Shown: positions 8,803 to 34,870, numbered from the stretch's first letter. The stretch is 35,617 nt of DNA from Candidatus Cloacimonadota bacterium (GCA_034660955.1 JAYEKK010000162.1:1-35617), one strand, 5' to 3'. Numbers and translations: made by a program. Notes: generated by a model from the letters alone, not told the origin.

Positions 8803-10927
8803 TATCTCTCCTGTAATTTTCTGTAGGTACCTTCACCATAAACTCAGCACCTTTTTCTTCACCTTCGCTTTTTGCTGTCAGTTTACCTTTCATTTCACTC
8901 ATTGCCAAAGCGCTTGTGTGAAGACCAAATCCTTTACCACCTTTTTTTGTTGAAAAACCATACGAAAAAATACTTTCTAAATTTATTTTTGCTATTCCGA
9001 TTCCATTGTCAACTATTTCAATAACTTGATAACCCTTATCTTCTAATATGTTTATGATTATAATTCTATCTTTCTCTTTTGCCTCTAGTGATTCTTTGGC
9101 ATTTTTAAGCAGATTCACAAATACCTGAATAAGTTTACCTTTTTCTATCAGAATGGGTTTTGTTTTGGAATAGTTCTTTTCGATCTTTATCTTATACTTT
9201 CTGAACATTTCTGAGTGCATTTTAAGAACATCATCCATCATCTTGGAAAGCTTAACCTTCTCTATTAATCCCGAAACTCCAGCATAACTCTGTTGCACTG
9301 CGATTATCTCCTCGATATGGTTTATTCCCTCATGAAGATTAGAAAGTTCTTCTAAGGAATTGTTTTGCTCATCTTTTAATGTTGTTCCCACTTTAATTAG
9401 ATATTCAGGGAGCATCTTTCCTTTTTCATCGGATGTTATGAATTTTCCTATATCGTCTTTATGCTCTTCCATTATGGAAAGAACTTGTTGCAGGCTGTTT
9501 ACTTTTGAAGATAATATCTTTTCTTTGAGAATTTGTGAAGACACTTTCACACTGTTGAGAACGTTTCCTACATTGTGCAGAATACCGGTAGCAATTTCTG
9601 CCATTCCGGCTCGATGAGCTGTATCTGTTAACATCTTTTGTGTTTCACGAAGTTCTTTCAAAGTACCGGAAAGCTGGTTTTTCTGTTTGGTTATCTGCTT
9701 GTTTTTCTGATTCAGTTCGGTGTTTGCATTTTCAATTAGGGTATTTTTTTGATTGAGGATAATATTTATTTTCTGCTTGGAACGGTAACGAGCGTAAATA
9801 ACAGAAGCAAGAATGAGAACGAGAACCGAAATAACGATAAATGAATTGCGAAGGTTTTGTTGTTTGTTGATCTCTAATTTCTGGATGTCGTTATCTTTCT
9901 TTAATATTTCATTTTCTTTTTCTTTTTTCTCGGTTTCGTATTTGGTTTGCATTTCGGCTATTTTTTCACTGCTTTCCTCGGTGAAAATGCTGTCTTTTAC
10001 TTCGGTGTAAAGTTTATAATACTCGAGAGCTTTTTGATAATCTTCTCTGGCTGTATATAGTTCTGAGAAGTTATTATAGCTGTTTTTTTGTAAGTGTTTT
10101 GATTCAATTTTATCAGCTATTTCTAATGCATTGTTAATATAAATAAATGCTTTTTTATAATTTTTAAGTTTAACATAAATCTGCCCGATATTTAGTGATG
10201 TGTTGGAAATACCCCAAATATCTCCTATTTCTTCTTTTAATTTTAATGCTTCAAGATAATATTCCAAAGACATACTGAAATTATTTAAATACCAATAATT
10301 TATTCCAAGATTGTTTAAACAAATTGCAATAAGTTTTTTGTTATCTGTTTTTTTGTATATTGTTAATGCAGAAAGATAATATTCTAGTGCTTCATCGTGA
10401 TTGTTTAATTGCATAGAAGCAATGCCAAGATTGATAAAATTCTTTGCCATAAGATCTTTATCGGAAATATCTTCACTTATTTTTAAAGAATTCAGGAAAA
10501 ATTCCTGCGCTTTATTATAATTTTCAATATTTAGATAAATAACTCCTAAATTATTATATGATTGTGAAATACCTAATTTGTTACCGATTTCTTCTCGTAT
10601 TTTTAATGAATTAATAAAATACTCTATTGATTTATCATAATCGTCTAAATAAAAATATATTCTGCCAATCTTGTCTGAGGAAGCAGCAACATCTTCTTTG
10701 CCTTTAATTTTTTTTGTTAATTCAAAAGCTTGCAATGCATAATCTAGTGATTTTGTATTTGAGACTGCATCATATGCTTTTATCAATTCATTCAAAATTT
10801 CTATTCTTTCATTGCCGTTAACTACATCTAATTTGCTTTCTAAACTATCTATTGCAGTTTGAGAAAAAATATTTTGATAAAATGTGAGTAAAAAGAAAAT
10901 AAAAAAACTTTTTATGAAAACTTTCAT
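8795..10927 (-). CDS. Membrane TPR-repeat sensor histidine kinase (paralog 2)
   Basis: Signal peptide, TPR repeats (SYNNLGVIY, CLNNLGINY), one TM helix (SFIVISVLVLILASVIY) and a coiled coil. H-box ILHNVGNVLN, N-box NLLKNAKES, DNGIG and GFGL. Confidence 0.93.
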   Translation of the reverse strand: MKVFIKSFFIFFLLTFYQNIFSQTAIDSLESKLDVVNGNERIEILNELIKAYDAVSNTKSLDYALQAFELTKKIKGKEDVAASSDKIGRIYFYLDDYDKSIEYFINSLKIREEIGNKLGISQSYNNLGVIYLNIENYNKAQEFFLNSLKISEDISDKDLMAKNFINLGIASMQLNNHDEALEYYLSALTIYKKTDNKKLIAICLNNLGINYWYLNNFSMSLEYYLEALKLKEEIGDIWGISNTSLNIGQIYVKLKNYKKAFIYINNALEIADKIESKHLQKNSYNNFSELYTAREDYQKALEYYKLYTEVKDSIFTEESSEKIAEMQTKYETEKKEKENEILKKDNDIQKLEINKQQNLRNSFIVISVLVLILASVIYARYRSKQKINIILNQKNTLIENANTELNQKNKQITKQKNQLSGTLKELRETQKMLTDTAHRAGMAEIATGILHNVGNVLNSVKVSSQILKEKILSSKVNSLQQVLSIMEEHKDDIGKFITSDEKGKMLPEYLIKVGTTLKDEQNNSLEELSNLHEGINHIEEIIAVQQSYAGVSGLIEKVKLSKMMDDVLKMHSEMFRKYKIKIEKNYSKTKPILIEKGKLIQVFVNLLKNAKESLEAKEKDRIIIINILEDKGYQVIEIVDNGIGIAKINLESIFSYGFSTKKGGKGFGLHTSALAMSEMKGKLTAKSEGEEKGAEFMVKVPTENYRRDNE

Positions 10928-13161
10928 TTTGAATTTACCGGAATACTTACAATAAATTTTGCACCTTTCCCTTTGCCTTCACTTTCCGCTATTAATTTTC
11001 CTTTCATTTCAGTCATTGCCAGCACACTAGTGTGAAGTCCGAAACCTTTGCCATCTTTCTTTGTGGAAAAACCATATGAAAAAATTCTTCTTAAATTCTT
11101 TTCTACTATACCCATTCCGTTATCAACTATTTCAATAACTTGATAACCCTTATCTTCTAATATGTTTATGATTATAATTCTATCTTTCTCTTTTGCCTCT
11201 AGTGATTCTTTAGCATTTTTTAATAAATTCACAAAAACCTGAATAAGTTTACCTTTCTCTATCAGGATAGGTTCGGTTTTAGAATACTCTTTTGTGATCT
11301 TTATCTTATATTTGCGGAATATTTCTGAGTGCATTTTAAGAATATCATCCATCATCTTGGAAAGCTTAACCTTCTCTATTAGTCCCGAAACTCCGGCATA
11401 ACTCTGCTGTACTGCTATTATCTCCTCGATGTGATTGATTCCCTTGTGAAGATTAGAAAGTTCTTCTAAGGAATTGTTTTGCTCATCTTTTAAAGCTGTT
11501 CCCACTTTCAGCAAATAGGGAGGAAGCATCTTTCCCTTCTCATCGGAAGAAATGTATTCTCCAAGGTTATCCGTATGTTCTTCTATTATGGATAAAACTT
11601 TTTGCAGGTTATTTACTTTTGATGATTTTATCTTTTCTTTGAGGATTTGCGAAGATACTTTCACGCTATTCAGAACATTTCCTACATTGTGCAGAATACC
11701 GGTGGCGATCTCTGCCATTCCCGCACGATGAGCTGTATCGGTTAACATTTTTTGGGTTTCACGAAGCTCATTTAAAGTTTCGGAAAGCTGGTTTTTTTGT
11801 TTGTTGATCTGTCTATTTTTTTGGTTTAGTTCTGTATTTGTGTTTTCTATTACATTGTTTTTTTGATTGAGAATGACATTTGTTTTCTGTTTGGAACGAT
11901 AACGAGCATATATAATAAAGACAACGAAAAGAATAAGGATAGAAATAACGATAAACGAATTACGGAGGTTTTGTTGTTTGTTGATTTCAAGTTTCTGGAT
12001 TTTGTTATCTTTCTTTAATATTACGTTTTCTTTTTCTTTTTTCTCTGTTTCATACTTAGTCTGCATCTCTGCAATTTTTCCACTGCTTTCTTCGGTGAAG
12101 ATACTGTCTTTTATCTCTGTGTAGAGCTTGAAATATTCGAGAGATTTTTTGTAATCATTTTTTATTGAATACAAATTGGAAAGAGAGTGGTAGCTGTTTT
12201 TTTTTAAAGATTTAGCTTCGACTTCTTCTGCCAATTTCAAACTTCTCAGAAAATAAGAAAGAGCTTCATCATAATTTTCCAATAGAAAATATAATTCTCC
12301 AATGTTATTGGATGTATTGGCAATGCTGAATTTTTCTTCCATTTCTTCAGAAATTTTTAATGATGTGAAAGAATATTGTAATGCTTTATCATAATTTCCC
12401 GAAATTTGGAAAACAAAGGCAATATTGTTTGAAGCAGCAGCTATACCGAATTTTTTATCCAGTTCTTCATAAATTCTTAATGATTTAATAAAATGTTTTA
12501 AACTTTTTTCATAGTCCGTTAGCACATAATAAATATTCCCGATATTGTTATTAGTAATAGCAATACCATCTTTATCATCAATTTCTTCATAAATTTGTAA
12601 TGAATGACCATAATATTCCAGTGCAATAGAATGCTTACCTATTTCCCAATTTATATTACCAATATTATTTAATGATGCTGCAATATCTTTCTTATCTCCA
12701 ATATTTTCTCTTATCTTCATCGATCTTAGATAATATGCAAGAGATTCATCGTATTTGCTTAGATTGTTATAGACCAAGCCGATATTATTTAACGTCTGAG
12801 CAATGTCCTTTTTGTTTTCAATATCTTCAAATATTTGCAATGCTTCAAAGAAAATTTCTATTGATCTATTGTATTCACTAGAAAGGTAATATGCTGTTGC
12901 AATATTATTTAGAGCTTTTGCCTTTCCTTCTTTATAATCAATTTTTTTTGATAATTCCAAGGCTTGTTTACCATAATCCATCGTTTTTTCTGGTAAATTG
13001 CTTTTATATGCTTGTGCTAATTCGTTCAGAACTTCCACTTTTTTCTTATTATCAACGATTTTTAGTTGTGTTTCCAGACTATCGATTTTTGTTTGAGCAA
13101 ATAAGTTTAAAGGTAACATTAATAAGAGGAAAACAAAAAAACTTTTTATTAGTACTTTCAT
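10924..13161 (-). CDS. Membrane TPR-repeat sensor histidine kinase (paralog 1)
   Basis: Same architecture as 8795-10927 with a longer TPR region. Its stop overlaps that gene's start (ATGA). Confidence 0.93.
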   Translation of the reverse strand: MKVLIKSFFVFLLLMLPLNLFAQTKIDSLETQLKIVDNKKKVEVLNELAQAYKSNLPEKTMDYGKQALELSKKIDYKEGKAKALNNIATAYYLSSEYNRSIEIFFEALQIFEDIENKKDIAQTLNNIGLVYNNLSKYDESLAYYLRSMKIRENIGDKKDIAASLNNIGNINWEIGKHSIALEYYGHSLQIYEEIDDKDGIAITNNNIGNIYYVLTDYEKSLKHFIKSLRIYEELDKKFGIAAASNNIAFVFQISGNYDKALQYSFTSLKISEEMEEKFSIANTSNNIGELYFLLENYDEALSYFLRSLKLAEEVEAKSLKKNSYHSLSNLYSIKNDYKKSLEYFKLYTEIKDSIFTEESSGKIAEMQTKYETEKKEKENVILKKDNKIQKLEINKQQNLRNSFIVISILILFVVFIIYARYRSKQKTNVILNQKNNVIENTNTELNQKNRQINKQKNQLSETLNELRETQKMLTDTAHRAGMAEIATGILHNVGNVLNSVKVSSQILKEKIKSSKVNNLQKVLSIIEEHTDNLGEYISSDEKGKMLPPYLLKVGTALKDEQNNSLEELSNLHKGINHIEEIIAVQQSYAGVSGLIEKVKLSKMMDDILKMHSEIFRKYKIKITKEYSKTEPILIEKGKLIQVFVNLLKNAKESLEAKEKDRIIIINILEDKGYQVIEIVDNGMGIVEKNLRRIFSYGFSTKKDGKGFGLHTSVLAMTEMKGKLIAESEGKGKGAKFIVSIPVNSK

Positions 13162-13247
13162 TTTGAACTTACCGGAATACTCACAATATAATTTTCACCT
13201 TTATCTACATCATCACTTTCTAAGATTAATTTACCCTTCATTTCAAT
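13158..13247 (-). pseudogene. 3'-terminal relic of a third TPR-kinase paralog
   Basis: Translates to (IE)MKGKLILESDDVDKGENYIVSIPVSSK*, versus TEMKGKLIAESEGKGKGAKFIVSIPVNSK* at the C-terminus of 10924-13161. It has the same ATGA overlap with the next gene. Confidence 0.85.
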
Positions 13248-13362
13248 CCTATGCTTATTACTTTTCTTCGTATAAGGCTTTACATTCGGTATTTACAGGA
13301 TGCTTTGACAATAAACAACTGAATATTAAACATATATAATATTAATATATTTAATGAAACCA

Positions 13363-15033: not shown

Positions 15034-15154
15034 CTCACCCTCTGTCCCTCTCTTCAAGAGAGGGAAGCCGGAGAAAATGTGAAAGAGAGAATATTCTTCT
15101 TGCACCTCTTAATTTCCCCTTCTTTTTTAAGAGAAGGGGTTAGGGGATGAGTCA
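15031..15154 (+). repeat. Palindromic direct repeat copy 1 (REP-doublet/REPIN-like)
   Basis: TAACTCACCCTCTGTCCCTCTCTT-C-AAGAGAGGGAAGCCGGAGAAAATGTGAAAGAGA...TTTCCCCTTCTTTTTTAAGAGAAGGGGTTAGGGGATGAGTCA. Two internal hairpins plus complementary outer ends ACTCA/TGAGT. Confidence 0.92.
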
Positions 15155-15512
15155 GGTAAGAACAACTGCAATTCAAACAGCACGAGATTTGAGACAAAAG
15201 ACAACAAAAGCAGAAAGTACTTTTTGGGAAGTCATCAGAAACAGAAAAATAGATAATTATAAATTCAATCGTCAATTTCCAATTTATTTTGAATACGAAG
15301 AACAAGAAAGATTTTTCATAGCAGATTTTTATTGTCACAAAAGAAGATTAATTATTGAAATAGATGGTGGGATTCACGAACAACAAAAAGATTATGATAT
15401 GCTAAGAACAGAAATAATAAATAAATTAGGATTTAAAGTTATTAGATTTAGTAATGAGTTTGTAATGAATAATTTGAGTACAGTTATTGCAGAGTTGAAA
15501 AGAAATTTATGA
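15147..15512 (+). CDS. DUF559 (Vsr-like, restriction-endonuclease fold) protein
   Basis: ARDLRQKTTKAESTFW, FNRQFPI, FIADFYC, LIIEIDGGIH, YDMLRT and LGFKVIRFSNE are the typical DUF559 motif series. Confidence 0.9.
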   Translation: MSQVRTTAIQTARDLRQKTTKAESTFWEVIRNRKIDNYKFNRQFPIYFEYEEQERFFIADFYCHKRRLIIEIDGGIHEQQKDYDMLRTEIINKLGFKVIRFSNEFVMNNLSTVIAELKRNL

Positions 15513-15634
15513 AAATTAACTCACCCTCTGTCCCTCTCTTGCAAGAGAGGGAAGCCGGAGAAAATGTGAAAGAGAAAAAAATCTTGAACTTCTCGATTTC
15601 CCCTTCTTTTTTAAGAGAAGGGGTTAGGGGATGA
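15509..15634 (+). CDS. Putative 41-aa linker mini-ORF reading through repeat copy 2
   Basis: [45 protein letters not shown] overlaps with the DUF559 stop and with the next ATG. Confidence 0.35.
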   Translation: MKINSPSVPLLQEREAGENVKEKKILNFSISPSFLREGVRG

Positions 15635-15638
15635 GTCA
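15517..15638 (+). repeat. Palindromic direct repeat copy 2
   Basis: Near-identical to copy 1 in both arms (hairpin TCCCTCTCTT-GC-AAGAGAGGGA). It differs mainly in the ~25-nt central spacer. Confidence 0.92.
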
Positions 15639-15699
15639 AGATAGAGAAGGTAAAAAAAATCGTTTCTCTACGAAAAGCCGATTAATTGTTAGGGGATGA
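15631..15699 (+). CDS. Putative 22-aa linker mini-ORF
   Basis: [26 protein letters not shown] overlaps at both ends, the second with the xerC start. Confidence 0.35.
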
Positions 15700-31161: not shown

Positions 31162-31195
31162 CCAAATAAAAGAATTTTGAAATTAATAAAATTAT

Positions 31196-31227
31196 ATAAA
31201 CCGCTGTTAATGGTGGTTTATTTTTTT
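31196..31227 (+). terminator. Intrinsic terminator after metK
   Basis: ATAAACCGC...GTGGTTTAT stem (with a G-U pair) followed by a T-run. Confidence 0.7.
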
Positions 31228-31377
31228 ACATAAATTTATATACTTTAATTATGATAAAATAATTTGACCAATAATCCAGATAATATTTTTTAGTAAAGCA
31301 AGTATGAGGTAAGAAATTTACAAAAATTTAAAAACATAAGTATCTCGAACTAGAAATATCTAAACCAGGAATGGGGA

Positions 31378-32313
31378 ATGCAAAAAAGTTTGAAAACTGA
31401 GTTTTTGGGTATAACTATAACCTCACCGCTTGTGTTACCGGCAGGTGTGATGGGTATGGCATTTTCCGGTTTTAATATATCTATTAAAAATGGCGCAGGA
31501 ATTGTAACAAGTAAATCACTAACATTAGAACCAAGATCAGGGCATAAAGGACCCGTAGTTGCGGAATTTGAGGGTGGTTTATTAAACTGTATGGGATTGT
31601 GTAATCCCGGCATTATAGATGGTCTTGCCGAAATAGACCAATTTAAAAAACGCTCCGATATTCCAGTTATTGCGAGCGTTTTTGCTACAAATACAGAGGA
31701 CTTCCTATCATTAACTAAACATGTTAATAAATCAAAATCTGACTTCCTTGAACTGAATCTGTCCTGCCCTAATGTATTTGATGAATTTGGGATTCCGTTG
31801 GCAGCTTCACAAGAAGAAGTTCATAATATTGTTAAGGCAGTAAAACAGGTTTCAAAACTTCCGGTTATTGCTAAACTTTCTCCAAATGTTTATGATATTG
31901 TATCCATCGCAAAAGCTGCAGAATCTGCAGGGGCTGATGCTTTATGTATGATAAATACAGTAGGACCAGGAATGCTTATTGATACAAAAATGATAAAACC
32001 TGTCCTCTATAATAAATTTGGTGGTCTTTCCGGACCTTGTATAAAACCAATTGCACTCAAACTTATCTACCAAACATATTCTGCTGTACATATTCCAATT
32101 ATTGGAATGGGTGGAGTAACTTATGGTGAAGATGCAATACAGTTGTTAATGGCAGGTGCAGATGTAATTGGAGTTGGAACTGCTGTTCATTATCGTGGAA
32201 TTGAAGTCTTTAATAAGATCAATATGGAAATCTTAGAGTTCATGGAAGAGAATAAGTATAAGAGTTTGAAAGATATTCCAAAGTTAGAAAAAATTAGAAA
32301 TGTGAAATGTTAA
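31378..32313 (+). CDS. pyrD: Dihydroorotate dehydrogenase, class 1B catalytic subunit
   Basis: NCMGLCNPG, ELNLSCPNV, AKLSPN, INT, GGLSGP and IIGMGG motifs. Followed by pyrK. Confidence 0.94.
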   Translation: MQKSLKTEFLGITITSPLVLPAGVMGMAFSGFNISIKNGAGIVTSKSLTLEPRSGHKGPVVAEFEGGLLNCMGLCNPGIIDGLAEIDQFKKRSDIPVIASVFATNTEDFLSLTKHVNKSKSDFLELNLSCPNVFDEFGIPLAASQEEVHNIVKAVKQVSKLPVIAKLSPNVYDIVSIAKAAESAGADALCMINTVGPGMLIDTKMIKPVLYNKFGGLSGPCIKPIALKLIYQTYSAVHIPIIGMGGVTYGEDAIQLLMAGADVIGVGTAVHYRGIEVFNKINMEILEFMEENKYKSLKDIPKLEKIRNVKC

Positions 32314-32320
32314 AGTAGAA

Positions 32321-32545
32321 ATGGAAAAGAAAAATATTATTCAAAAGCAGACATACATTCTGGTTACAAAGTTGCACTTCGTAACGCAATTGAAGGCGAA
32401 GTTCAACTTCGCGAGAAAAAATGTTCCCAAGTTTAATTTGGGAACAAGATATAAAAGAACGAGTGATAGAATAACACAAATATTTAATGTTGACTTTGCA
32501 ATGCAAAACGACATATTCATTTATTGTTTGTGTAAGGAATCTTGA
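32321..32545 (+). CDS. Putative 74-aa linker ORF containing a triple-hairpin repeat
   Basis: Starts 8 nt after the pyrD stop, and its TGA overlaps the pyrK ATG (TGATG). Shares a repeat-derived peptide with 33348-33590. Confidence 0.35.
   Translation: MEKKNIIQKQTYILVTKLHFVTQLKAKFNFARKNVPKFNLGTRYKRTSDRITQIFNVDFAMQNDIFIYCLCKES
32360..32448. repeat. Triple-hairpin REP-like element, copy A
   Basis: Hairpins GTTACAAAGT-TGC-ACTTCGTAAC (32363-32385), GCGAAGTT-C-AACTTCGC (32396-32412) and TGTTCCCAAG-TTTAA-TTTGGGAACA (32422-32446). Confidence 0.85.
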
Positions 32546-33351
32546 TGGATAGAAGATATACAATAAGAATAGATAAAATAGTTGAAGAAACACCTGACAT
32601 TAAAACATTCACATTTAAACATACTCTTGGTGCAAAACCAGGACAGTTCATTATGCTCACGGATTTCGAAGGAGGAGAGAAACCTTTCTCACTATCTAAT
32701 TGCTCAAAAGAGGAATTTTCCATAACTGTAAAAAGGATAGGTGAGTTCACAACTCGCCTTTTCCAAAAGTGCGTCGGGGATTATGTTTCAATAAGAGGTG
32801 CTTACGGCTCCTCTTTTTTTGTATCAAAAAACAAGGTTCTGCTGGTTGGTGGTGGATATGCTGTTCCAACATTCTATTTCTTTGCTAAAGTGTTATTGGA
32901 AGCGGGAACAGACGTCACATTGATTAATGGAGCACGAACAAAAGCTGAACATGTCTTTGCTGATAGATTCAATGAATTAGATATAAGAGTAATCAATTCA
33001 ACTGATGACGGTACTTTTGGTGAAAAGGGAACTGCTGTAGATGTTGCACAAAAAATTATGTCTCAAGATAAATTCGATTTTTTCTATGCATCAGGACCGG
33101 AAATGATGATGAAAGCGTTGCAGAATACTCTGCAGGGTCAAGGTCAAGATCAAGGTCGAGATTTGGATTATGAATTCCTTTTTGAGAGATATATGAAATG
33201 TGCGATCGGAATTTGCGGGAATTGCACAATGGATCCGATCGGATTAAGACTTTGTGTGGAAGGACCTGTACTTCCAAAAGAGAAAATAGAACAAATTACC
33301 GAATTTGGTAAATATCATCGTGATGCATCAGGAAAGAGGATAAAATATTGA
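32545..33351 (+). CDS. pyrK: Dihydroorotate dehydrogenase electron-transfer subunit
   Basis: PGQFIML, KPFSLS, RGAYG, VGGG, TDDG and the 2Fe-2S motif CAIGICGNC...CVEGPV. ATG at 32545 follows AAGGA. Confidence 0.93.
   Translation: MDRRYTIRIDKIVEETPDIKTFTFKHTLGAKPGQFIMLTDFEGGEKPFSLSNCSKEEFSITVKRIGEFTTRLFQKCVGDYVSIRGAYGSSFFVSKNKVLLVGGGYAVPTFYFFAKVLLEAGTDVTLINGARTKAEHVFADRFNELDIRVINSTDDGTFGEKGTAVDVAQKIMSQDKFDFFYASGPEMMMKALQNTLQGQGQDQGRDLDYEFLFERYMKCAIGICGNCTMDPIGLRLCVEGPVLPKEKIEQITEFGKYHRDASGKRIKY
33133..33162 (+). repeat. In-frame hexamer tandem repeat within pyrK (QGQGQDQGRD)
   Basis: CAGGGT CAAGGT CAAGAT CAAGGT CGAGAT. Confidence 0.75.
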
Positions 33352-33590
33352 AAATTGAATATTTAGAATTTAGAATTTACCACAGAGTTTACAGAAAGCA
33401 CGGAGATAATTCTTTGTCTTTGCGAGGTTTCTTGCAAAGTGTTCAACCGAAGCAATCTTGTTTCTCACTAGTTACGAAGTTAAACTTCGCAAGAAAGTGT
33501 GTTCCCAAGTTCAACTTAGGAACAAGTAAAAGTAACTCAAACATCCTGTTTGAGAAAAAAGAACAATCAGGAATGATTGTGATACGGTAA
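33348..33590 (+). CDS. Putative 80-aa linker ORF made of stacked repeat fragments
   Basis: TTG start overlaps the pyrK TGA (TTGA). Its TAA ends 2 nt before the pyrC ATG. Confidence 0.35.
   Translation: MKIEYLEFRIYHRVYRKHGDNSLSLRGFLQSVQPKQSCFSLVTKLNFARKCVPKFNLGTSKSNSNILFEKKEQSGMIVIR
33468..33526. repeat. REP-like element, copy B (30-bp internal deletion relative to copy A)
   Basis: CTAGTTACGAAGTTAAACTTCGCAAGAAAGTGTGTTCCCAAGTTCAACTTAGGAACAAG aligns to copy A with hairpins 1 and 2 fused. Confidence 0.85.
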
Positions 33591-33592
33591 AA

Positions 33593-34870
33593 ATGAAAAT
33601 TTTATTAATAAATTGTAAACTTATCGAAGGATTGAGAGACATCATCATCAAAGATGATAAAATAGTTAATGTTTATTCGAGTTGTAAGAAACGCGAAACA
33701 GACTTCGATCAAGTTATCGATATAAAAAACAAACTGGTTATTCCGGGGATGATAGATGCTCATGTTCACGTTCGTGATTTAAAACAGAACGAAAAAGAAG
33801 ACTGGAATTCTGGAAGTCATGCAGCTTTGGCAGGTGGAGTAACGACCATTTTCGATATGCCAAACACAATTCCTGCAACTACAAATTTGAAGAACCTGAA
33901 CGATAAAAGAGAAGTAGCCAAGAAAGCAAAAGTAAATTATAAATTTCATCTGGGTGCAACTGAAAATAACCTGCAGGATTTAGGAGAAATTTTAAAGGAT
34001 AAACCAACCGACATTGCAGGGATCAAACTCTTTCTAGCTGGTTCCAGCTCAAATGAAGTTGTTGCTGATGAAAGTAAAATAAAGGATATATTCCAACTTG
34101 CAAAGAAATTTAATAAAGTAGTTCTCGTTCATACGGAATTGCAAAAATGTTTAGATAAATGGCAAAAAATGATTGAAGATAAATCTATTCAAAATCACGA
34201 TATAATTAGAAATAGAGAATGCGCAATTAAAGGAACCAGATTGGTTTTACGACTAGCAAATGAAATTGGAAACAAACTCTATATCTGTCATGTTTCAACA
34301 AAAGAAGAGATCGAATTGATAAAGAAATATAAAAACAAGAATATTTTCTGTGAAGTCACTCCTCATCATCTTACACTCGAAAAGAGCATTCTGGATTTGG
34401 TTGGGAACTTTGGTAAAGTAAATCCACCTTTACGTACAAGCGAAGATAATCAAGTACTTTGGGAAGCGATACTAGATGGAACTATCGATTGTGTAGGAAG
34501 TGATCATGCTCCGCATACAATTGATGAAAAGATCGAAGATTATATAAATGCACCCTCCGGTTTTCCCGGACTCGAAACAACTTTGCCAATTCTTATCACA
34601 GAATTTAAAGAACGTAAAATTCCATTAAAGAAATTAGTTGAACTTACAAGTAAAAAGCCTGCAGAAATGTTTAGTTTTGAAAATCGTGGGAAAATTGAAG
34701 AAGGATATTATGCGGATCTAACAGTAATAAATACAGAAAATGAATATCCAATAATTGCTGAGCTGTTTCAAAGTAAGGCAAAATACTCACCGTTCGATGG
34801 AAGGATGATTAAAGCGCAGATAGATATGGTTTTTGTTAATGGAAAAATTGTTGAATTCAACGCAGAATGA
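33593..34870 (+). CDS. pyrC: Dihydroorotase
   Basis: PGMIDAHVHVRD, GGVTTIFDMPNT, CEVTPHHL, KVNPPLR and GSDHAPH motifs in a pyr operon context. Confidence 0.93.
   Translation: MKILLINCKLIEGLRDIIIKDDKIVNVYSSCKKRETDFDQVIDIKNKLVIPGMIDAHVHVRDLKQNEKEDWNSGSHAALAGGVTTIFDMPNTIPATTNLKNLNDKREVAKKAKVNYKFHLGATENNLQDLGEILKDKPTDIAGIKLFLAGSSSNEVVADESKIKDIFQLAKKFNKVVLVHTELQKCLDKWQKMIEDKSIQNHDIIRNRECAIKGTRLVLRLANEIGNKLYICHVSTKEEIELIKKYKNKNIFCEVTPHHLTLEKSILDLVGNFGKVNPPLRTSEDNQVLWEAILDGTIDCVGSDHAPHTIDEKIEDYINAPSGFPGLETTLPILITEFKERKIPLKKLVELTSKKPAEMFSFENRGKIEEGYYADLTVINTENEYPIIAELFQSKAKYSPFDGRMIKAQIDMVFVNGKIVEFNAE

Follow-up and report, generated by a model that had tools for sequence, protein, structure and literature searches.

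The window analysed here is one whole 35.6-kb contig from the draft genome of a Cloacimonadota bacterium (2.67 Mb, 34% G+C, 93%-complete), and the subject of this work is its pyr operon, in which two long intergenic spacers are each bridged by an open reading frame (ORF). The operon comprises three ORFs on the plus strand: pyrD (31378–32313), encoding the catalytic subunit of dihydroorotate dehydrogenase (Pfam DHO_dh, E = 1.7e-71), pyrK (32545–33351), encoding the electron-transfer subunit (Pfam DHODB_Fe-S_bind), and pyrC (33593–34870), encoding dihydroorotase (Pfam Amidohydro_1). Gene calls were made with a simple home-made caller, and several downstream starts were set by homology.

The 231-nt pyrD–pyrK spacer is bridged by relay ORF 1, a linker ORF of 74 codons (32321–32545, plus strand). 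It starts 7 nt past the pyrD stop, a TAA at 32311–32313, and terminates with a TGA (32543–32545) that has one base in common with the pyrK ATG at 32545 (TGATG), which gives stop-to-start distances of +7 and −1. An AGGA ribosome-binding motif is present at 32533–32536, 9–12 nt 5′ of this ATG. The end of pyrD is overlapped by the ATG of a mini-ORF, MLK* (32307–32318, plus strand); the same ATG is found in the relative L006. The mini-ORF is probably incidental and superfluous to the chain. The 241-nt pyrK–pyrC spacer is bridged by relay ORF 2, of 80 codons (33348–33590, plus strand), with a TTG start within the TTGA that holds the pyrK stop (−4) and a TAA stop (33588–33590) located 2 nt 5′ of the pyrC ATG at 33593 (+2). 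No core Shine-Dalgarno motif lies within 20 nt upstream of pyrC; such a motif, AGGAAAGAGGA, is present on the plus strand at 33330–33340, within the 3′ end of pyrK and now 5′ of relay ORF 2.

A first-pass annotation, made from the sequence alone, had described the mini-ORF and both linker ORFs with the same coordinates and couplings, which our inspection bears out. It had also estimated that 75–80 open codons should be rare by chance even before coupling at both ends is taken into account. In 1000 dinucleotide shuffles of each spacer, a doubly coupled ORF is obtained with P = 0.006 for pyrD–pyrK and P = 0.007 for pyrK–pyrC. Neither relay ORF matches a Pfam family, and their codon-usage scores are −0.2 and −4.8 for ORFs 1 and 2, respectively, as compared with >10 for real genes of that size.

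Both spacers are mosaics of short hairpin modules, with a predicted fold made up of chains of local hairpins. Spacer 1 carries a three-hairpin composite of repeat family D17 at 32363–32445 (hairpins 32363–32385, 32396–32412, and 32423–32445; fold z = −2.8), the stems of which have the form xxxxxAAGTT-N-AACTTxxxxx. Spacer 2, whose fold has z = −4.1, contains about seven local hairpins, among them a two-hairpin copy of this composite (33475–33526, family D17). The repeat common to both spacers (32397–32448 and 33475–33526) is 85% identical, and the two ORFs read it in one and the same frame, as previously noticed; the 10-codon difference reported between the two copies corresponds to a 30-nt hairpin unit. 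Dispersed copies of the spacer-1 composite are found on contigs C113, C183, C209, C226, and C317. The copy numbers of the modules are modest, with 1–40 copies per seed at up to 2–3 mismatches, and their orientation is unbiased (for example, 8 sense versus 9 antisense, or 4 versus 5), copies being also present in spacers between divergent and between convergent genes. Genome G000 has nine matches to PF01797, a Y1 transposase family (L166–L173; contigs C75, C148, C18, and six others), three of them with copies of the spacer-1 3′ module at a distance of 2–4 kb. These transposases may be responsible for mobilizing the hairpin repeats.

Spacers inserted at orphaned start codons

We compared the pyr operon in 20 GTDB relatives and 38 metagenome loci. 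The spacer is no longer than 25 nt between pyrD and pyrK in 33 loci and between pyrK and pyrC in 21 loci, and the usual junctions are overlaps of −8 for pyrD/pyrK (ATGGATAA) and −4 for pyrK/pyrC (ATGA). Since the genes overlap in most relatives, both spacers of the window are insertions, and they consist of dispersed hairpin repeats.

Each relay ORF starts at the orphaned original start codon of the downstream gene. Relay ORF 1 begins at the ancestral pyrK start with ATGGAAAAG, coding for MEK, and reads MEKK; the pyrK proteins of relatives start with MEKR. Comparison of the first bases of relay ORF 2, TTGAAAATT, with those of pyrC, ATGAAAATT, reveals an 8-nt direct repeat on either side of the insert. 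This repeat, TGAAAATT, read directly on the plus strand at 33349–33356 and again at 33594–33601, would represent a target-site duplication. The motif AGGAAAGAGGA upstream of relay ORF 2 is the ancestral pyrC ribosome-binding site. Orphaned starts are observed at pyrK, pstC, and nqrF junctions. A further line of evidence comes from a −11 pyrK/pyrC junction present in five loci (L003, L004, L005, L031, and L032): in L003, the sole one of these junctions that was read, pyrC starts with MSSR, using the codon at which the relay ORF of the relative L002 (MSSK) begins. The relay start position is thus a real start site in a sister lineage, and comparison of L003 (2300–2330) with L002 (2296–2500) fits a scenario in which the entire spacer was deleted in frame, so that the relay start became joined to pyrC. 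This origin at start codons goes beyond the first-pass annotation.

Inserted DNA is arranged differently in other pyr loci. In L006 and L033 (genome G008), a 1325-nt insert between pyrD and pyrK contains one long ORF, which starts 21 nt past pyrD and whose stop overlaps the pyrK GTG start; this is a whole inserted gene, still coupled at its end. In L018 (genome G009), pyrD is 62 codons longer and reads into inserted sequence, while pyrK, a 293-codon frame whose match is split in two, has taken up an insert in frame: here, repeat DNA has been absorbed into coding sequence. Upstream of the operon, the metK–pyrD spacer (window positions 31162–31377) is exactly 216 nt long in 10 of the 20 loci spanning it and 193–268 nt in the others, a pattern suggestive of a conserved leader or promoter for the pyr operon. 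On account of this length conservation it was dropped as a neutral control for indels. An Rfam scan of the window at gathering thresholds, this spacer included, gave no match.

Open frames in pyrK–pyrC and other spacers

Among 22 distinct pyrK–pyrC spacers of 79–351 nt, stop codons are depleted in the frame that opens on the pyrK stop: this frame contains 18 stops in 1227 codons, whereas the two other forward frames contain 83 and 70 and the reverse frames 36, 50, and 54, and it is free of any stop in 15 of the 22 spacers. Because the reverse strand is an imperfect control, sense strands having more stop triplets overall, the other forward frames and shuffled sequences were used as controls. 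With a uniform criterion, according to which a spacer is bridged if an open frame reaches within 16 nt of the downstream start, 18 of 23 pyrK–pyrC spacers are bridged (17 of 22 without the window genome), as against 2.08 expected from shuffles. The spacers vary widely in module content and length, and on the pyrK tree, loci with open spacers are intermingled with loci that have tight junctions. Among the alignment gaps between open spacers, 18 of 29 are multiples of three.

The encoded peptides show no sign of constraint. Substitutions between pairs of pyrK–pyrC spacers are flat over the codon positions (mismatches of 10/11/8 and 23/13/16, for example), and the ratio of nonsynonymous to synonymous substitution rates (dN/dS) is 0.38–1.96 in the relay ORFs, versus 0.04–0.17 in pyrK of the same pairs. 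The position of the ribosome-binding site follows the state of the frame. A core Shine-Dalgarno motif occurs upstream of 58% of the genes of the window genome, compared with 7.6% at a control position; in open pyrK–pyrC spacers, it precedes the relay start in 16 of 17 cases and pyrC in 1 of 17, whereas in closed spacers pyrC has its own motif in 4 of 6 (one-sided Fisher p ~0.008, computed by hand). Taken together, the stop depletion, the frame-keeping turnover, the unconstrained peptide, and the ribosome-binding-site pattern provide good support for selection on the open frame, and not on the peptide, at pyrK–pyrC. Selection for continuous translation had been put forward by the first-pass annotation for both spacers, with the prediction that orthologous spacers would show 3n indels, one frame kept open, and a dN/dS near 1. 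At pyrK–pyrC this is what we observe, the codon usage being non-coding-like as well, and it is for this junction that the proposal stands.

Inserts are also bridged in other operons. Between nqrE and nqrF, the spacer measures 9–24 nt in 25 loci, and the two inserts, of 141 nt in the window genome and 102 nt in another genus, are both bridged. The 5′ region of nqrF is present in two copies in G000 (C127:2530–3273 and C22:4916–5611; 96% protein identity), which may be due to strain heterogeneity in the assembly; the C127 copy, the only one examined, has the 141-nt insert. The 148-nt pstS–pstC spacer of the window genome is bridged, and that of another genus, 431 nt long, carries a 139-codon ORF ending 12 nt before the ATG (shuffle P = 0.000). 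Twelve pstC–pstA loci are tight, and the inserts found at this junction (203–424 nt) are bridged in five of five cases versus 0.02 expected. In the rnf operon, 10 of 18 spacers of ~100 nt are bridged; a core Shine-Dalgarno motif is retained by every downstream gene except one.

Proposed mechanism and alternative explanations

We consider it likely that hairpin inserts at start codons are bridged by a selected open frame that relays ribosomes to the displaced gene. Repeats resembling repetitive extragenic palindromic (REP) sequences or MITEs (miniature inverted-repeat transposable elements) inserted just past the start codons of pyrK and pyrC, leaving the original start codon, and for pyrC also the original ribosome-binding site, at the upstream edge of the insert, while a duplicated start at the downstream edge would serve the gene itself. 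Ribosomes starting or restarting at the orphaned codon would then translate the whole structured insert, and their termination on the displaced start, or a few bases before it, would restore the short stop-to-start distance required for reinitiation coupling. The spacer RNA would be kept unfolded and covered by ribosomes, its hairpins melted and the RNA shielded from Rho; selection would act on the frame staying open and not on the peptide. Translation of the relay ORFs, as well as its presumed benefit (ribosome delivery and/or protection from Rho), is inferred from these sequence patterns. The idea fits the loss of reinitiation coupling described in PMC10666635, where an untranslated intergenic distance of ~20 nt nearly abolishes it. 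The first-pass annotation had suggested checking for Rho. Rho (PF07497, TIGR00767) was not found in the 93%-complete assembly of the window genome, but TIGR00767 scores above cut-off in 38 of the 41 genomes searched; the clade therefore has Rho, and its absence was rejected as an argument.

Several observations weigh against this mechanism or narrow its reach. Relay ORF 1 is the weaker of the two cases of the window and could be due to chance: its 231-nt spacer is found in the window genome only, pyrK keeps its own AGGA motif, the pyrD–pyrK spacers of relatives are mixed (four of seven bridged), and the spacer is also stop-free on the reverse strand, with a 99-codon ORF at 32294–32593, so that part of its openness may stem from the palindromic repeats. 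Over nine types of operon-internal junctions, 42 of 67 distinct spacers are bridged versus ~5 expected from shuffles, totals that overstate the rate owing to the biased choice of operons, the junction types having been chosen because the window genome showed a bridge there, and to the non-independence of relatives, which were treated as separate cases. The dinucleotide shuffles, moreover, ignore the repeat structure. Within the same set, bridges are found in 20 of the 24 spacers without a downstream motif and in 22 of the 43 with one; since several bridged pstC–pstA and pstS–pstC junctions keep a ribosome-binding motif before the downstream gene, motif loss is not the whole reason for bridging. 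In the rnf operon, the 144-nt rnfD–rnfG spacer of the window genome is closed, spacers of at least 150 nt are bridged in none of four cases, and, under a stricter criterion, every one of the three frames is interrupted by stops in the 110-nt rnfE–rnfA spacer of L136, whereas four relatives of 111 nt are open, a difference that we read as a 1-nt indel. Since each module has about one open frame in three, chance alone should produce short single-module bridges of ~100 nt fairly often.

Bridging is not a rule for all co-directional spacers, contrary to the genome-wide extension that the first-pass annotation had envisaged for those over 100 bp. Among co-directional spacers of at least 100 nt in the window genome, 28 of 485 hold a doubly coupled ORF, compared with 6.1 from shuffles and 7 on the reverse strand; about 7 of the 28 are real genes missed by the caller. 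No depletion of stops in forward relative to reverse frames is seen in 595 co-directional spacers of this genome. A genome-wide search for duplicated-start signatures proved too noisy and was abandoned (nine matches in 705 spacers, of which only two are clearly bridged). The DUF559 locus of the window, cited earlier as showing the same pattern, does not show it, since neither of its spacers is doubly coupled: the 113-nt spacer (15034–15146) has two stop-free frames with no ATG, GTG, or TTG inside, and in the 183-nt spacer (15513–15695), the frame beginning at the ATGA stays open for no more than 41 codons.

Could the bridges nevertheless be accidents of composition, the repeats happening to be stop-free in one frame and the ORFs of the window being chance finds among ~500 spacers? 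Each hairpin composite, as read by hand on the C113 copy, has about one open frame per strand, spacer 1 is open on both strands, and real spacers are more stop-free than shuffled ones on both strands; over the genome as a whole, openness is no greater in forward than in reverse frames, and the short rnf bridges of ~100 nt arise and break. Such an origin nonetheless seems improbable to us, given that the depletion at pyrK–pyrC is limited to one of the six frames, that the open frame survives many indels there, and that openness is maintained across differently composed spacers of 79–309 nt and recurs in pst spacers of up to 431 nt. Among spacers of at least 150 nt, 19 of 29 are bridged, with per-spacer shuffle probabilities mostly below 0.06.

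Two further explanations assign the frames a different history or a different product. Rickettsia palindromic elements are known to enter coding ends as in-frame insertions, and the repeats could likewise have entered as stop-free in-frame N-terminal extensions, the gene later restarting at a duplicated ATG and leaving behind a frame without any role. In-frame insertion of repeats does exist in the clade, as in pyrD and pyrK of L018, and the relay ORF in the 431-nt pstS–pstC spacer of L114 is in frame with pstC, broken only just before the ATG. Relics of this kind should however have stops at random positions, while the first stop lies no more than 16 nt from the downstream start in 18 of 23 pyrK–pyrC spacers; this is so even though the flanking pyrK proteins are only 55–88% identical to that of the window and spacer pairs differ at 15% of sites or more. 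In 20 of 22 spacers, moreover, the length (mod 3) is 0 or 1, which places the relay in a different frame from pyrC. We hold this scenario to be slightly less probable still than chance. That the linker ORFs are genuine small protein genes is very unlikely: they do have start codons, a good ribosome-binding motif in one case, and conservation as open frames, but their lengths range from 26 to about 140 codons with variable repeat content, their dN/dS is about 1 without third-position bias, neither Pfam nor codon usage marks them as genes, and the same modules are found in either orientation, including between divergent and between convergent genes.

Repeats are found in other regions of the window as well. 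The DUF559 gene (15147–15512) is flanked by 64-nt repeats (15098–15161 and 15582–15645) that include a duplicate of its own start region (GGGGATGAGTCA), and a phage-type integrase gene follows at 15696. At 8835–13248, adjacent minus-strand genes have 300-nt and 243-nt repeats in common, 2.1–2.2 kb apart, together with a 120-nt periodic repeat (10225–12858); they are presumably tandem paralogues with internal repeat domains.

Significance and comparison with known systems

In repeat-rich Cloacimonadota, an insertion in a tightly coupled junction may survive in the long term mainly if an ORF from the orphaned start carries ribosomes across, a tentative generalization to which we would give somewhat less than an even chance. 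If true, it would constitute a general evolutionary filter on mobile repeats, and not a property of a single element family, and the genomes would permanently harbour ORFs of up to ~140 codons that are translated constitutively, free of constraint on their sequence, as a pool for new proteins. These junctions offer a natural experiment on whether translation itself, without a useful product, can be a selected trait. Their signature, which is rarely this clean, combines one open frame with indels of 3n, a dN/dS close to 1, and an inverse relation to the ribosome-binding site of the downstream gene. They provide annotators with a reason for recurring ‘hypothetical proteins’ between operon genes, and experimenters with constructs for testing how far reinitiation coupling or Rho protection can be relayed.

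According to published descriptions, REPs are non-translated intercistronic elements affecting mRNA stability, whereas Rickettsia palindromic elements become part of host proteins. The modules described here resemble both, as well as the bacterial interspersed mosaic elements (BIMEs) formed by REPs, in being short imperfect palindromes that are dispersed, hairpin-forming, and stacked in mosaics; like the Rickettsia elements, some repeats of the clade lie in frame within genes (L018). They differ from both in that the insert, lying between two genes, is read as an ORF of its own. The hallmarks of REP/BIME systems are more than 100 copies and linkage to a REP-associated tyrosine transposase (RAYT); the window genome has nine PF01797 matches, three of them 2–4 kb from copies of one spacer-1 module, and a modest 1–40 copies per module.

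Termination–reinitiation pairs of the ATGA and TGATG types are governed, according to PMC10666635, by a stop-to-start distance within about −8 to +10 nt. Both ORFs of the window lie within this range at both ends (+7, −1, −4, and +2), and the ancestral pyr, pst, and rnfD–rnfG junctions are overlaps of −8, −4, or −1. The difference is that coupling would here pass through an intermediate ORF without a product of its own. A literature search yielded no description of such relay ORFs in Cloacimonadota.

The closest precedent, which the first-pass annotation did not mention, is provided by MIRUs (mycobacterial interspersed repetitive units), which review summaries of Supply et al. 1997 describe as inserted at start codons with a coupled ORF (PMC12548453, section 11), a similar account being given in Delihas 2011 (PMC3184786). 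In these accounts, MIRUs are short co-transcribed repeats inside operons, inserted at start codons with short direct repeats, as with TGAAAATT around the pyrK–pyrC insert, and their internal ORF overlaps or abuts the flanking stop and start, so that the insertion is thought to be cheap for expression; the ends of the relay ORFs are the same. The likeness is drawn from review descriptions, and several features differ. MIRUs are mycobacterial and form one family of 40–100 bp units oriented with the flanking genes; the spacers of Cloacimonadota combine several unrelated hairpin modules in a mosaic, with no bias in orientation, and their bridges are much longer, up to 431 nt. Because module orientation is unbiased and copies also lie between divergent and between convergent genes, the open frame is no built-in property of one element and is instead preserved over stacks of elements, and comparative evidence indicates here that openness itself is maintained. 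The arrangement of the pyr operon is the same idea as the MIRU, extended to mixed hairpin stacks in another phylum.

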